Below, piece by piece: positions 5,158-58,774 of a stretch of 64,000 bases of DNA. A program made the translations under genes and the position numbers. Source of the DNA: Klebsiella phage vB_KpnM_VPA32; the sequence record OP558005.1; one strand, given 5' to 3'. Within the stretch, counting starts at the first letter, position 1; every line of letters starts with the position of its first letter. A model generated the notes under the pieces. The model saw only the letters and a program-made list of their open reading frames with translations, did no database searches and was not told the DNA's origin.

Positions 5158-7473
<2,316 letters not shown>

Positions 7474-47119: not shown

Positions 47120-47127
47120 TTCGTTTT

Positions 47128-47180
47128 CTCCATTTGGTTAGTGTAGAGACATAGTAACACAACCAAATGGAGATGTAAAC
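47128..47180 (-). promoter_or_regulatory. Early promoter inside a 12-bp perfect stem (PeSL-like) upstream of alc
   Basis: GTTTAC at 47175-47180 (minus) and TTACTAT at 47151-47157. The CTCCATTTGGTT/AACCAAATGGAG inverted repeat (47128-47139 and 47161-47172) brackets the -10 element. Confidence 0.6.
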
Positions 47181-50362: not shown

Positions 50363-52618
50363 TTAAAGCTTACATGCAGAACAATCTTCGGCTTTTGGTT
50401 TTTCGATTTCAAAATCGTCGTTACCAGAACCATCACGAGTGTTATGATAGTACAACGTCTTACCGCCAAAGTACCAGAAGTAAAGCAAGTCGTCCATCAT
50501 AACAGACATTGGCACTTTACCTTTCTCATAATTCTGAGGGTCATAGTAAGTATTAGCTGATGCAGATTGGCATACCCACTTCAACATAATAGCTACTTGA
50601 GTCAGATAAGGCTTGTTACCCTGCTTAGCAAGTTTCCATGCATAATCATAGAGGTCAGCATTCAGTTCAACATTCGGAACTACTTGGTTGAAGCTTCCTT
50701 CTTTAGACTCTTTAATAGAGACTGGACCTCGTGGCGGCTCAATACCGTTTGTGCTGTTGGAAACCTGGGAGGAGGACTCACATGGCATGAGTGCGGACAA
50801 TGTACTGTTACGGATGCCATATTGCTTGAGTTCTGCACGGAGTGCTTCCCAGTCACAAACGTAATTCGGGGCCGCGAGCTGGTCAATTCTTTTATTGTAC
50901 CAGTCGATAGGTAATTCGCCTCGAGACCAACGAGTGTCTTTATAATACTCGCAAGGTCCTTTTTCTTTTGCAAGTTTAATTGATGCTTTGATAAGTGCAT
51001 ATTGCAGCCTTTCAAACAGTTCATGAGTCAGGTCGTTTGCATCAGCGTATGTAGCAAAGTTATCTGCTAACCAAGCAGCATAGTTCGTTACACCAACACC
51101 CAATGCTCGACGTTTAAGAGCTTTCAAAGCTTCTTTAACCGGATAACCTTGATAACTCAAGAGGTTGTCGAGTGCTCGGACTTGGACTTCTGCGAGTTCG
51201 TTAATAGTTTCTTGGTCTTGCCAATCGAAGTTGCCGAGTACGAACGCAGACAACGTACACAGCGCAATTTCTGCGTCTTCTGAGTAGACGTCTTTAGTAG
51301 GTAACGCAATTTCTGCGCAGAGGTTCGATTGCTTAATCGTAGCCACATCACGAATAAAAGGACCATAATTACCAACGTTATCTACGAAGTAAGGGTAAAT
51401 TCGAGCAGTGCCTGAACGCTCAGTTAAGAATAACTCGATCAGTTCACGAGCTTTGACACGCTTCTTACGAACATCTGGATTCTTTTCAAGAGCTTCATAT
51501 TGTTCACGGAACGCAGCAGCATCTTTGAAATAGTTCTCATAAAGGCGACCAGCATCAATGTCCGGAGAGAACAGAGTGATGTAATCATCTTTAATCAAAC
51601 GTTCAAACATCAGGTCGTTGATTTGAACACCGTAGTCCAAGTGACGAATTCGGTTTTCATCTACGCCTTTGTTGTTCTTGAGTACAAGGAGGTTTTCAAC
51701 TTCCAAGTGCCAGATTGGATAGTACAATGTCGCCGCGCCACCGCGAACTCCACCTTGGGAGCAAGACTTAACTGCTGTTTGGATGTGTTTCCAGAAAGGA
51801 ATAACTCCAGTATGCTTGACTTCTCCGAAGCCGATTTTTGAGCCTTCTGCACGAATCATACCTGCATTAATGCCGATACCAGCACGTTTAGAGATGTACT
51901 CTACAATTGATTCAGCAGATTTGTTAATTGATTTCAGTGAATCACCAGCTTCAATAACAACGCAAGAGCTGAATTGACGAGTAGGAGTACGAGCACCTGC
52001 CATAATAGGAGTAGGCAGAGAAATTTTCTTAGTTGACACAGCATCGTAAAAACGAATAGTGTTCACTAAACGGTTTTCACCATCATCCTGATGCAGAGTC
52101 ATACCAATGAGCATGAATGCAAATTGAGGGGTTTCGATGATTTGACCAGTGCTGCGGTCTTTGACCAGGTATTTTTCAATGAGTTGCATCGTACCAGCAT
52201 ACGTCATTTCAAAATCACGGTCATGAACAATTTTACTTTCAAGCAGAGCAATTTCTTCAGCAGACCATTTGGCAAGAATTTCTTTGTCGTATTTGTTGTG
52301 ATTAACACCAAATGAAATCTGGTCAATAAATGAACGAGGCTCAAACTGTCCATAAACTTGCTTACGAAGATTGAACATCGCCAGATTACTTGCTACATAT
52401 TGATAATCTGGTTCTTCAATTGAAATCATTGAAGCTGCAACTTTAGTAGCTGCGCGTTGAATGTCATAAGTTGTCATTCCATCTTGCAGATGCGGAACGA
52501 TAGCTTGATATAGCTCATATGGGTCAACTCGGGTGTTTTCACAACCCCATTCCAGAACTTTGATAAGTTTTTCTGGAGTAAATTCCTGAGAGGTACCACT
52601 GGACTTAATTACTTTCAT
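50363..52618 (-). CDS. nrdA: Ribonucleotide reductase large subunit (class Ia)
   Basis: 751 aa. ATP-cone N-terminus, catalytic Cys motifs and a C-terminal CxxC tail (DCSACKL). Confidence 0.95.
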   Translation of the reverse strand: MKVIKSSGTSQEFTPEKLIKVLEWGCENTRVDPYELYQAIVPHLQDGMTTYDIQRAATKVAASMISIEEPDYQYVASNLAMFNLRKQVYGQFEPRSFIDQISFGVNHNKYDKEILAKWSAEEIALLESKIVHDRDFEMTYAGTMQLIEKYLVKDRSTGQIIETPQFAFMLIGMTLHQDDGENRLVNTIRFYDAVSTKKISLPTPIMAGARTPTRQFSSCVVIEAGDSLKSINKSAESIVEYISKRAGIGINAGMIRAEGSKIGFGEVKHTGVIPFWKHIQTAVKSCSQGGVRGGAATLYYPIWHLEVENLLVLKNNKGVDENRIRHLDYGVQINDLMFERLIKDDYITLFSPDIDAGRLYENYFKDAAAFREQYEALEKNPDVRKKRVKARELIELFLTERSGTARIYPYFVDNVGNYGPFIRDVATIKQSNLCAEIALPTKDVYSEDAEIALCTLSAFVLGNFDWQDQETINELAEVQVRALDNLLSYQGYPVKEALKALKRRALGVGVTNYAAWLADNFATYADANDLTHELFERLQYALIKASIKLAKEKGPCEYYKDTRWSRGELPIDWYNKRIDQLAAPNYVCDWEALRAELKQYGIRNSTLSALMPCESSSQVSNSTNGIEPPRGPVSIKESKEGSFNQVVPNVELNADLYDYAWKLAKQGNKPYLTQVAIMLKWVCQSASANTYYDPQNYEKGKVPMSVMMDDLLYFWYFGGKTLYYHNTRDGSGNDDFEIEKPKAEDCSACKL

Positions 52619-56788: not shown

Positions 56789-57013
56789 TTAGTTGCAAAT
56801 TTCAGAAATAGTGTCAGCCAAGAATTCGCCAGTTTCGTCAGCGCCTACACAGTAAGATTCAGTTAAGAATTTTACAATTTTCTCACGAGGACCTAATACT
56901 TTGTATTCATATCCCCATTCCACATCACCCGCTAATTCACAGTTCAAACCAAATTTTTTAACTTCACTTTCGAAATGTTCTTCATCTGCAACGCCGAGAT
57001 AGATATGTGCCAT
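56789..57013 (-). CDS. Hypothetical acidic protein, 74 aa
   Basis: Early promoter at 57045-57075. GGAGTAAAACAAA leader. Confidence 0.55.
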   Translation of the reverse strand: MAHIYLGVADEEHFESEVKKFGLNCELAGDVEWGYEYKVLGPREKIVKFLTESYCVGADETGEFLADTISEICN

Positions 57014-57044
57014 TTTGTTTTACTCCGTTTGGTTGGTGTAAGAG

Positions 57045-57075
57045 TATAGTAACACAGCTTAAAGCGGATGTAAAC
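57045..57075 (-). promoter_or_regulatory. T4-type early promoter
   Basis: Minus strand: GCCGTTTACATCCGCTTTAAGCTGTGTTACTATA, upstream of ATG 57013. Confidence 0.55.
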
Positions 57076-57081
57076 GGCAGA

Positions 57082-57148
57082 ATTAACGTAACGTAAAAGT
57101 TACTTTAGGTGGGAATTGGGAGGTTAATGTAACGTAAAAGTTACTTAG
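57082..57148. repeat. Two direct copies of a 25-nt unit, each carrying the 16-bp palindrome GTAACGTAAAAGTTAC, centres 41 bp apart
   Basis: 57082-57107 ATTAACGTAACGTAAAAGTTACTTTA and 57123-57148 TTAATGTAACGTAAAAGTTACTTAG. Palindromes at 57088-57103 and 57129-57144. Confidence 0.8.
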
Positions 57149-57163
57149 TTCAAAAACAACAAA

Positions 57164-57181
57164 AGGAGCCCGAAGGCTCCT
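57164..57181 (-). terminator. Gene 32 terminator GGAGCC-CGAA-GGCTCC
   Basis: 6-bp stem with a T-run (minus strand), 9 nt after the gene 32 stop. Confidence 0.65.
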
Positions 57182-57189
57182 TCTTTTTA

Positions 57190-58110
57190 TTACAGACCGT
57201 TCAGCAGTTCGTCGAGGTCTTCATCACCGCTGGAGGCAGAACCGCCAGTTTCCATGAAATCTTCAGCTGGTGCTGATTTCTGAGAACCTGCGTTAAAGCT
57301 CGCGAGGTCATCTTCAAAGTTTTCCAGGTCTTCACCAACCTTATCAGCCTGAGCAGATGCGCGAGACGCGGCAGTACCCATAGCAGCTGTACCCATAACC
57401 TGAAGGAATTTCTTCTGGTTATCTTCGAAAGATTTGAACTGGTCTTTCGCAGTCAGAGTAGACAGGTCAACCATTTGTTCCTGCAGCTGTGCTTGATAAG
57501 CTTCATCTTCGATATTAGGAATCTCAGATTGACCAAGGAACTTGGATTCATCGTAGTTGCTGAAACCAGATACTTTCTTAACTTTCAGAACGAAGTTAGC
57601 ACCTTCAAACGCACAAGTTACGTCGATTGGAGTTTCGCCCATTTCAACGTCAACGGCAACCATTGCATTGATTTTGTCCCAAATTTTCTTACCGAAACGA
57701 TATTTGAAGACTTTACCTTCGTTTTCTGGAGCAGCCGGGTCTTTAACAACCAAGATGTTCGCGTAGTAAGAAGTTTTGCGTTTCAACAGCTTGTATTCTT
57801 CGTTGTTGGTGTTATATGAATCATTCTTGGACAGATATTGACATACTGGGCAAGAATCATAATCACCATGGGTAGAAGTACAGTTTTCAATGTACCATTT
57901 ACCACCTTTCTTGAAGCCGTGATTCACCAGAACAGCGAATGGTACGCCTTCATCACCTTTACCTGGCAGGAAACGGATGACCGCTTGACCGTTACCAGCA
58001 TTATCCAACTTCAGTTTCCATTCACCTTTATCTTCGGAATTGAAACCTTTAGAACCAGACAGGGAAGCCAGTTGGGAAGCCAGGGCAGCAGGATTTTTAC
58101 GCTTAAACAT
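57190..58110 (-). CDS. 32: Single-stranded DNA-binding protein gp32
   Basis: [29 protein letters not shown], the Zn site (C...H...C..C) and LAST-like motifs. Acidic C-terminus. 306 aa. Confidence 0.95.
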
Positions 58111-58120
58111 ATATTTTACC

Positions 58121-58774
58121 TTAATATTTACAGTTTTTGACAGTTTTTATGAACAGTTGTTTTGCTTCTTCGCGGTCAACATTAAGTATCTTTCGATACG
58201 CATGTAACTTTGTAGAGTAGTTTGACCAGACCAGATTATCAGTTGCTTGGTCATGTTTATTTATAATGTCCAGAAACGAGTCCAGAATTATAAAAGTCTC
58301 GAAAGAGATGATATTACTTTGAAGTAATTTGAATATGTATGACGAGTTAACCTTATCATTATAATCAAATAATTCATTAAGCGATTTAACTTCAACTTTC
58401 TTGCTGAAATAGTAAATATTGCGAACGTCTTCTTCGAAGTTCGACTTGATTAATTTCAGCTTACCAATATATTCACGATAAAACACTAACGCATCTGCAT
58501 CGGAAATTTCACCAATCCAGGCGTCCTGGTTAGCTACCAGGTTACTGATGAATATCAAGGTCAATTCTTTTAATGTGTACTTCTCAGATAACTTCTTGAA
58601 GAAGTATTTGTCACGACGTTTATCGTAAGCCTTATCTGATACTCGCATGCACCAGTTGTACTTGACAACATCATATCGACCGTTGAAGTGATTCTTCAAC
58701 ATCAAGTACAACTTGTACACAGACTTACCGTCGATATATCGTCCACCATTTGGTGGCATGCGCAATTTAATCAT
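58121..58774 (-). CDS. 59: Helicase loader gp59
   Basis: 217 aa. [25 protein letters not shown]...[10 protein letters not shown] is near-identical to T4 gp59. Confidence 0.95.

Follow-up and report, generated by a model that had tools for sequence, protein, structure and literature searches.

Repeats downstream of gene 32 in Klebsiella phage vB_KpnM_VPA32 are probably the arms of a conserved inverted-repeat module with one flipped centre

Hairpins that lie past a terminator and act only on RNA that has read through it are known from the sib/tI retroregulation of lambda and from the RNase III sites of T7. In the promoter-early stem-loop (PeSL) cassettes of T4-type phages (Arbiol et al. 2010, PMC2839356; Comeau et al. 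2014, PMC4122927), a stem-loop and a strong early promoter share an intergenic module that borders a variable set of small early genes, and the adjacent cassette is exchanged between phage genera. AT-rich stem-loops beside T4-type early promoters at the internal-protein loci have been noted as analogues of these cassettes (PMC2839356). Inverted repeats are also sites of template switching, by which the arms are homogenised and the spacers reversibly inverted (PMC8604942). Here we analyse two repeats in a stretch of 64,000 nucleotides from Klebsiella phage vB_KpnM_VPA32 (OP558005.1; the whole stretch is called the window), which lie between the terminator of gene 32 and a T4-type early promoter. 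Comparison with related phages indicates, with a probability of roughly 0.85, that these repeats are the arms of a conserved, single-copy inverted-repeat module occupying this position, and that the centre of the distal arm has been flipped.

A sequence-only reading of the window had reported two 25-nt direct repeats, each containing a perfect palindrome of 16 bp, and had interpreted them as a cooperative operator. The observation was partly confirmed. The repeats are real, although they are 23 nt long with 22 of 23 positions identical (over 25 nt, only 22 of 25 agree); they start 41 bp apart, and both contain the 16-mer GTAACGTAAAAGTTAC (Table 1). Terminator and promoter scans placed them, as described, between the gene 32 terminator and the early promoter, and with the start site taken near 57039 the centres of the 16-mers fall at about -56.5 and -97.5, which fits the reported interval of -45 to -110. 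The centre-to-centre distance of 41 bp also stands, while a location on the same helical face would follow only from its being about 3.9 turns. The palindrome is not perfect, since the reverse complement of GTAACGTAAAAGTTAC is GTAACTTTTACGTTAC, and 5-bp arms (GTAAC/GTTAC) flank an asymmetric 6-nt centre. Six of the eight dyad pairs are complementary, namely those of the 5-bp arms and one inner pair, a degree of self-complementarity found in the top 0.6% of the window's 16-mers.

The motif had been said to occur nowhere else in the window, and no further copy was found there at up to two mismatches; a covariance model of the hairpin formed by the relatives' elements, searched over the window, detected no second copy either. 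The complete PG7 contig carries the exact 16-mer at this locus only, and in 32 Karamvirus records the element by itself gave a single matching place per genome. We also searched a composite genome of about 173 kb, made up of the window and the rest of the relative fGh-Ecl01, in which a small stretch before the window start may be uncovered. GTAAC-N6-GTTAC was present there only at the two sites and in one unrelated match at the end of the holin gene, and a relaxed symmetric core was observed 4 times against 2.25 expected. The 16-mer is thus not a dispersed generic repeat, and belongs to a single locus.

The window DNA is of the CC31/PG7-like Karamvirus type, this region being 96-98% identical to Enterobacter phages of that genus, among them CC31, PG7 and fGh-Ecl01. 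The region 3' of gene 32 was fetched for 80 T4-type loci, and the element was read individually in 32 cases across three genera, 18 of them Karamvirus. Karamvirus, Kanagawavirus (PEi20, KLB31, CIP9, Entb_45, ZX14 and Kosakonia 305) and Winklervirus (CHI14, X20, LC53, Virsaitis27, Vettismorki and Gravdalen) carry the same module, a 16-mer, 25 nt and a 16-mer, in the same slot. The core-to-core gap is exactly 25 nt in 32/32 elements read, and both arms were present at the exact spacing in all 57 records that matched by BLAST, which represent the three genera and several continents of origin. The 25-nt segment itself is unrelated between genera (identity 0.50-0.61, about background), with an A/T tract at the centre of every loop. 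In Kanagawavirus and Winklervirus, the element is a perfect inverted repeat of 17-21 bp, for example TGGCACATATAAGTTACATTA...TAATGTAACTTATATGTGCCA, and the outer half-site degenerates to GGAAC or GGCAC. The proximal core is separated from the -35 hexamer by 12 nt in Karamvirus and by 22, 23 or 24 nt in the other two genera, and the distance from the element to the terminator is also variable. The promoter and 5' leader are near-identical across these relatives, and the promoter matches two to four places per genome as well as other genera.

The element is absent from the closest outgroup, the phages Moon, Merlin and CF1 (gp32 about 80% identical). There, a near-identical terminator is joined straight to the same promoter (tttctggact followed directly by ctgccGTTTAC), so that the element of about 70 bp is an indel within the terminator/promoter junction. 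Klebsiella phage Marfa has a half copy only. Nothing comparable was seen at the T4-like, S16-like and other gene 32 loci among the 80, and the covariance model of the hairpin found no copies at these loci beyond the three genera. A search of Rfam 15 with the window region and four relatives returned no credible family match. A bipartite pattern run over 185,579 bacterial and archaeal genomes gave 5 matches, none of them enterobacterial, indicating that the element has no host counterpart. Papers found under the genus names look, by their titles and abstracts, like genome descriptions, and the element is not described at that level; in a 2010 review of T4 genomes there is no mention of palindromes, inverted repeats, stem-loops or gene 32, and 'hairpin' occurs in a cited title only. 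The record PQ898399.1 (Enterobacter phage SonariX), labelled 'partial genome', is 248,734 bp long and has a typical Karamvirus gene 32 region at 50471-50665; Karamvirus genomes are about 172 kb, and this record may be a concatenated or chimeric assembly.

Within Karamvirus the GTAAC/GTTAC arms are almost invariant, and the polymorphism lies in the orientation of the distal 6-bp centre: 11 of the 18 elements, the window included, are direct, 5 are inverted and 2 are intermediate. With the centres quoted as distal/proximal on the gene-sense strand, the direct state reads TTTTAC/TTTTAC in the window, PG7, CW742, SonariX and myPSH1140 (the last with an extra arm mutation), TTATAC/TTATAC in CC31, TTATAC/TTTTAC in Pet-CM3-4, UFV01, KMB17 and KMB19, and TTTTAC/TTATAC in KaAlpha. 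The inverted state is found as GTAAAA/TTTTAC with a perfect 16-bp stem in PS49, KMB20 and IMG/VR contig 172317, as GTATAA/TTATAC, again perfect, in Entb_43, and as GTATAA/TTTTAC with one mismatch in EnC07. COW86c and RZH are intermediate, with GGAACATATACGTTAC as the whole distal core and TTTTAC as the proximal centre. The proximal arms are invariant in 18/18 elements, and the proximal centre varies only by T/A. Both states occur among close isolates (window/PG7 versus PS49/KMB20; CC31 versus Entb_43). The TTTTAC of the window and PG7 and the GTAAAA of PS49 and KMB20 differ at 4/6 positions and are exact reverse complements, which points to a single inversion event; TTATAC in CC31 and GTATAA in Entb_43 form a second reverse-complemented pair of centres.

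Spacer inversion is seen at a second, larger level in the same element. Between PEi20 (at about 3962-3978 of contig L073) and its close relative KLB31 (L171), a 17-nt loop centre is exactly reverse-complemented, TCCGCAAAAAGTGGGCT in one and AGCCCACTTTTTGCGGA in the other. Arms are perfect in all Kanagawavirus and Winklervirus elements and in 4/5 of the inverted-state Karamvirus elements. Because each arm has its own 5-bp inverted repeat, GTAAC...GTTAC, inversion of the centre converts an inverted repeat of the two arms into a direct one. In the light of the distal-centre and loop flips among the relatives, what had been described as tandem palindromes in the window would therefore be the arms of an inverted repeat, one of which carries a flipped nested spacer.

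As far as can be judged from the sequences, the change of the centre bears the signature of replication template switching at inverted repeats, a mechanism for which PMC8604942 cites Ripley (1982) as having first suggested quasi-palindrome switching in phages. The locus shares with that mechanism exact reverse-complementation between arms (of 6 bp where the arms are 5 bp long, and of 17 nt where they are 21 bp long), a change that is apparently reversible and recurrent, and arms that are perfect or near-perfect in the inverted alleles (EnC07 having one mismatch). It differs in that two nested levels of inversion are present here, the inner of which toggles hairpin competence, and quasi-palindrome switching is in any case a mutational mechanism and not a function.

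Folding predictions were made for the alleles. For inverted-state Karamvirus elements, the sense RNA gave -20.1 kcal/mol (z -6.4) and the single-stranded DNA (ssDNA) -14.3 kcal/mol (z -5.1). The corresponding values for PEi20 were -41.4 kcal/mol (z -11.2) and -24.6 kcal/mol (z -10.6), and the sense RNA of the CIP9-like contig L076 and of CHI14 gave -31 kcal/mol (z -8.0) and -31.6 kcal/mol (z -6.6), respectively. The sense RNA of the window allele gave -8.2 kcal/mol (z -1.7), with two 5-bp mini-hairpins, and the z values of its ssDNA were -0.25 and +0.5 on the two strands; this allele has no significant fold and no cruciform potential. Its outer flanks add at most 7 further pairs on the + strand, one of them G-T, and were included in the + strand folds. 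The predicted stems of the relatives are 16-27 bp long, so that the duplex length of RNase III-type sites (about 20 bp or more) is reached there and not in the window allele. A terminator scan returned the gene 32 terminator only; the palindrome is AT-rich, has no T-run directly after it and is not an intrinsic terminator.

Covariation was tested on an ungapped alignment of 16 distinct elements, in comparison with 500 shuffles. In 88% of cells the distal arm pairs with the proximal one, the unpaired cells being mostly direct-state Karamvirus centres, and 6/21 inter-arm pairs have changed on both sides. Inter-arm covariation was 0.121 as against 0.045 in shuffles (0/500 reached 0.121), and the inter-arm structure collapsed when the partner was slid by 1-3 columns. 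The internal dyad of the 16-mer holds in 75% of cells, no better than in the shuffles, and no compensatory change within the 16-mer dyads was seen in the 16-sequence alignment. Positions 2 and 3 of the core co-vary with the other arm between genera, which indicates that the evolving unit is the long inverted repeat. Four of the eight dyad pairs, (1,16), (4,13), (5,12) and (7,10), are invariant in both copies of 16/16 sequences; the sole exception seen to these symmetric pairs is myPSH1140.

Between genera, the arms are better conserved than the adjacent essential gene 32. PEi20 and CHI14 are identical at 0.91 of arm positions, against 0.69 for gene 32 nucleotides, 0.70 for the promoter and 0.61 for the loop, and the comparison of CIP9 with CHI14 gave 0.82 for the arms and 0.66 for gene 32 nucleotides. 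Within Karamvirus, the window and COW86c differ at 0/16 positions of the proximal core and 0/62 of the promoter, as against 3/16 of the distal core and 4/25 of the loop (together 7/41); the distal core and loop change at about the rate of third codon positions (identity 0.76-0.79). The mutation in myPSH1140 falls at an otherwise invariant position of the distal arm. This asymmetry suggests that the proximal arm of Karamvirus is held by its place in the upstream region of the promoter, at about -49 to -64, and that the distal arm is loosely constrained.

With respect to function, we tentatively favour, at somewhat less than even odds, a role exerted through nucleic-acid secondary structure and not as a pair of operators, a preference drawn from sequence comparison. 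It is favoured because a very stable, perfect hairpin is present in two genera, because variation tracks pairing between the arms, and because the element is independent of the gene that follows and its distance to the promoter is not fixed. The module would be an extra AT-rich stem-loop inserted in a terminator/early-promoter cassette. In hairpin-competent alleles, RNA reading through the gene 32 terminator would fold into a stem of 20-27 bp, which extruded DNA could also form, and the stem could block or process read-through ahead of the next early transcription unit. The window allele would represent a flipped, weakened state made by template switching, in which two 5-bp mini-hairpins remain and the proximal arm may now occupy the upstream-element position of the promoter.

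Several observations weigh against such a role. Eleven of the 18 Karamvirus elements are in the direct, hairpin-incompetent state, yet both copies and their spacing are kept. Direct repeats of 23 nt that are 18 bp apart are expected to delete easily, and a deletion between them would presumably leave a half copy like that of Marfa; retention of both copies therefore looks as if selection acted on another feature than the hairpin. With a gene 32 terminator that looks strong, transcripts that contain the element may be few, and no T-run adjoins the hairpin itself. A hairpin would need neither the exact spacing of 25 nt nor the invariance of the dyad-symmetric core positions. Template switching can, without any selection, give rise to inter-arm covariation and even to arms that evolve slowly.

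The retention of both copies, the exact spacing and the dyad-symmetric invariant positions leave room for the operator proposal, which was partly supported and is not, in our view, the best reading. The 16-mers would in that case be quasi-symmetric sites (G..AC.T..A.GT..C) for a dimeric phage or host protein binding cooperatively to one face at sites 41 bp apart, and binding would modulate the adjacent early promoter or insulate it from gene 32 transcription, the long inverted repeat of the relatives being a by-product of template switching. We consider this unlikely, though less so than the other alternatives. The geometry that had been proposed is real; compatible with two sites for a dimeric protein are a spacing that is invariant in 32 elements from three genera despite unrelated intervening sequence, the four symmetric pairs that are invariant in both copies of the 16 aligned sequences, and the presence of 5-7 of 8 dyad pairs in the relatives' 16-mers, a level reached by only 0.06-3% of the window's 16-mers. 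The centre flip leaves the half-sites intact and is tolerated, both copies are kept in the direct state, and an A/T tract lies at every loop centre. The operator proposal is at odds with a palindrome that is imperfect, with covariation that runs between the arms while compensation within the dyads is lacking (positions 2/3 are followed by the partner in the other arm), with the degenerate outer half-site (GGAAC/GGCAC) of Kanagawavirus and Winklervirus, and with a distance to the -35 hexamer of 12, 22, 23 or 24 nt. The distal copy of Karamvirus is clearly less constrained than the proximal one, the arm mutation of myPSH1140 included, the relatives' element is a long perfect hairpin, and there is neither another site in about 173 kb nor an enterobacterial chromosomal counterpart. 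To our knowledge, T4-type phages rarely use sequence-specific regulators of duplex DNA apart from MotA. The search for a candidate protein was negative: the one tested, the 75-aa DUF2774 protein that the sequence-only reading had suggested, occurs in Karamvirus and in about 130 Klebsiella/Raoultella phage records without a BLAST match to the element, and was not found in Kanagawavirus and Winklervirus, which carry it. Inspection against consensus sites for the host factors CRP, Fis, IHF, TyrR, ArcA, OmpR, CpxR, LexA, DnaA and sigma-54 gave no convincing match.

It is improbable, to a greater degree than for an operator, that the element has no selected function and goes back to a fold-back duplication of sequence upstream of the promoter, which left an AT-rich palindrome whose arms are repaired by template switching, with the direct-repeat allele of the window as one step of decay. 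Absence from Moon, Merlin, CF1 and the T4-like, S16-like and other loci, the half copy in Marfa, the arm mutation in myPSH1140, and the 7/41 differences between the window and COW86c in distal arm and loop, near third-codon-position divergence beside an unchanged proximal arm and promoter, are all consistent with this. Moreover, a higher conservation of short inverted repeats than of the sequence around them has been reported, and was put down by the authors to repeated template switching (PMC8604942). On the other side stand the 57/57 matching records from three genera with both arms at the exact spacing, and the identity of 0.82-0.91 between Kanagawavirus and Winklervirus arms against 0.66-0.69 for gene 32. 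In a phage that recombines so readily, neither long perfect palindromes nor close direct repeats would be expected to be stable, which likewise argues against neutrality. Marginally less probable again is a mutational toggle, in which the reversible 6-bp flip would produce heritable on/off variants of insulation or read-through between gene 32 and the early-gene block, or alternatively a true operator pair for a new sequence-specific protein, a mode of regulation that would be rare in T4-type phages. We hold least likely a structure acting at the level of DNA, in which a cruciform or ssDNA hairpin would be the target of structure-specific enzymes such as endonuclease VII or gp59 and a local hotspot of recombination or replication restart at the edge of the variable early-gene region. 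The ssDNA folds of the hairpin-state relatives are stable (-14 to -25 kcal/mol, z -5 to -10.6), the two arms do come together as DNA in vivo, as the repeated inversions of spacer and loop show, and a mosaic boundary is nearby (frd.3 cassette about 92%, flanks 20-60%). However, it is at the promoter or 5' leader, and not at the palindrome, that the block of high identity sets in, the window allele lacks cruciform potential, there is no change of GC skew at the site, and a cut site would be lost in mixed infections.

Some other interpretations were discarded. No + strand TATAAATA, the T4 late-promoter consensus, reads into the element, as an antisense late promoter would, and the only one nearby is that of gene 32 itself. 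An iteron-type origin or terminus was rejected since the repeat is present just twice, in inverted arrangement among the relatives, with no skew change and no initiator gene nearby. On inspection, the sizes and sequence of repeats and spacer do not fit a CRISPR-like mini-array or a type III antitoxin repeat. A coding role was also set aside: GenBank 'hypothetical protein' open reading frames (ORFs) cross the palindrome and promoter in four contigs (L136 363-527, COW86c_267; L137 363-527; L168 313-675; L175 313-444), but the window has no ORF of at least 30 aa across the element, and those of COW86c, RZH, Vettismorki and Gravdalen look spurious and are probably over-calls.

Set against the described systems, the element appears, from its sequence, to be a junction module of the stem-loop/early-promoter kind, with quasi-palindrome template switching as its mode of evolution. 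As in a PeSL cassette, a promoter (57074-57046) has an adjacent stem-loop, here that of the terminator (57161-57184), to which the palindrome adds another in the relatives. PeSLs are, however, repeated at many loci, whereas the palindrome is strictly single-copy and only the promoter part recurs (two to four places per genome). Their stem-loops are GC-rich terminators, while the palindrome is AT-rich without a T-run, and it comes in addition to a normal terminator, between this and the promoter, with the exchange boundary at the promoter. Paired dimeric operators, such as those with CRP-type 5-N6-5 sites, have in common with it a 16-bp 5-N6-5 dyad that is present twice, about four turns apart, upstream of a promoter; here the dyad is imperfect, the two sites co-vary, the promoter distance is not fixed and there is one locus per genome. 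The likeness to lambda sib/tI and the T7 RNase III sites lies in the near-perfect stem of 20-27 bp which, in relatives, directly follows an intrinsic terminator and would thus be present in read-through transcripts only. Unlike in those systems, the terminator hairpin would still protect gene 32 mRNA, and the window allele cannot form the stem.

All genes around the element are on the minus strand, in the transcription order rnh, dsbA, 33, 59, gene 32, the 74-aa ORF and small ORFs down to frd; the identity of DsbA was confirmed by Pfam. The features of the locus are listed in Table 1. The terminator hairpin sequence is near-identical in the Moon-like phages that lack the repeats.

Table 1. Features of the gene 32/early promoter junction in the window
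Feature	Coordinates	Strand	Basis and remarks
Gene 32 (single-stranded DNA-binding protein gp32)	57190..58110	-	306-aa ORF; relatives' annotation; upstream transcription unit
Gene 32 intrinsic terminator	57151..57184	-	terminator scan; GC-rich stem 57184-57161, 10 pairs, T-rich tail GTTGTTTTTG
Distal 16-mer core	57129..57144	.	sense strand GTAACTTTTACGTTAC; 6-bp centre in 'direct' orientation; within repeat copy 57124-57146
Inter-core segment, 25 bp	57104..57128	.	sense strand ATTAACCTCCCAATTCCCACCTAAA; probable loop of ancestral hairpin; end 4-nt ATTA/TAAA pair partly
Proximal 16-mer core	57088..57103	.	sense strand GTAACTTTTACGTTAC; within repeat copy 57083-57105; about -49 to -64 of early promoter
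T4-type early promoter	57046..57074	-	promoter scan; -35 TTTACA 57074-57069, 17-nt spacer, TG-extended -10 TACTAT 57051-57046
First downstream early ORF, 74 aa, frd.3-like	56789..57013	-	ORF list; Pfam Phage_FRD3; PHROG 1764
Residual palindrome, full extent in window allele	57080..57152	.	outer flanks GAATTAA 57080-57086 and TTAGTTC 57146-57152

The early gene after the promoter had been taken for an ORFan served by a dedicated operator, and neither part of this held. The 74-aa ORF is frd.3-like (Pfam Phage_FRD3, E = 9e-6, 26.5 bits against a cut-off of 28.1; PHROG 1764) and heads a run of co-directional genes. The gene in this place is also frd.3-like in CIP9 and Pet-CM3-4, and other genes take its place in PEi20 and CHI14; the element is kept while the gene after the promoter differs, and is therefore not dedicated to that gene. 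The frd.3 cassettes of Pet-CM3-4 (L054 4070-4320) and CIP9 (L077), which correspond to 56789-57040 of the window, are about 92% identical in nucleotides and 95% in amino acids, as against about 68% for gene 32 and 20-45% for the downstream genes on their flanks. This looks like a recent inter-genus exchange of one small early gene bounded by early promoters, the kind of exchange described for PeSL elements (PMC2839356, PMC4122927). The block of high identity extends from the promoter or leader to the stop codon, with the palindrome outside it.

Some further features of the window were recorded. On the + strand at 57118-57131, across the loop and the distal repeat, GGGAGGttaATGTAA forms a Shine-Dalgarno-like run followed by a start codon that adjoins a stop codon, probably by chance, because no + strand promoter is evident. 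The late-promoter consensus lies at 58258-58265 on the minus strand, upstream of gene 32, which fits late transcription of this gene as well, and is strongly enriched in the window (16 observed versus 3.7 expected). A single further inverted repeat that is perfect and of short range was reported in the window; it lies at 47127-47173 and has 13-bp arms (TCTCCATTTGGTT / AACCAAATGGAGA) and a 21-nt spacer.

Repeats of similar appearance were seen in unrelated contigs, which had been pre-selected by the search pattern; a scan of viral contigs with a single-arm pattern was too unspecific and was discarded. An unrelated large phage (L154 333-383, and also L153, L161, L138 and L143; 176,323 and 40,580 bp, GC 54%) has two direct repeats at an interval of 41 bp, flanked by the genes for tRNA-Met and tRNA-Cys, with a core, ACCTTTACGTTACATTAA, that is 17/18 identical to the distal arm of the window; the extra matching bases look like more than chance. 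The metagenomic contig L147 (SXGQ01021737.1, GC 33%) carries at 1562-1612 two direct copies of GTAACATAAAAGTTACTT, 41 bp apart and 17/18 identical to the + strand repeat of the window. They lie between a stop codon and an intrinsic terminator and would therefore be in a 3' untranslated region. PHROG scans of L153 and L147 were uninformative. Tandem arrays of 41-bp period, in which the whole unit is repeated and the cores are GTAAC-N6-GTTAC-like, were found in L162 (about 5650-5900) and L165 (4849-4940), with at least 3 copies in L165 and more in L162; third copies were not demanded by the search pattern, and these look like iteron or satellite arrays.

The general importance of the element is limited, because it is single-copy and absent from T4 itself. 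If it were an operator, a new sequence-specific DNA-binding factor would act on one early promoter, which would surprise specialists of T4. Knowledge of the element helps in annotation, given the spurious ORFs that have been called across it in several records. With a function that is putative, it is a modest curiosity rather than a demonstrated operator, and at the same time a tidy case, open to testing, of a conserved phage element with spacer inversion at two nested levels. If the hairpin interpretation is true, a small conserved stem-loop module has been added to the terminator/promoter junction, and T4-type phages would offer in this locus a clean example from nature of nested spacer inversion, useful for studying template switching and the control of read-through.

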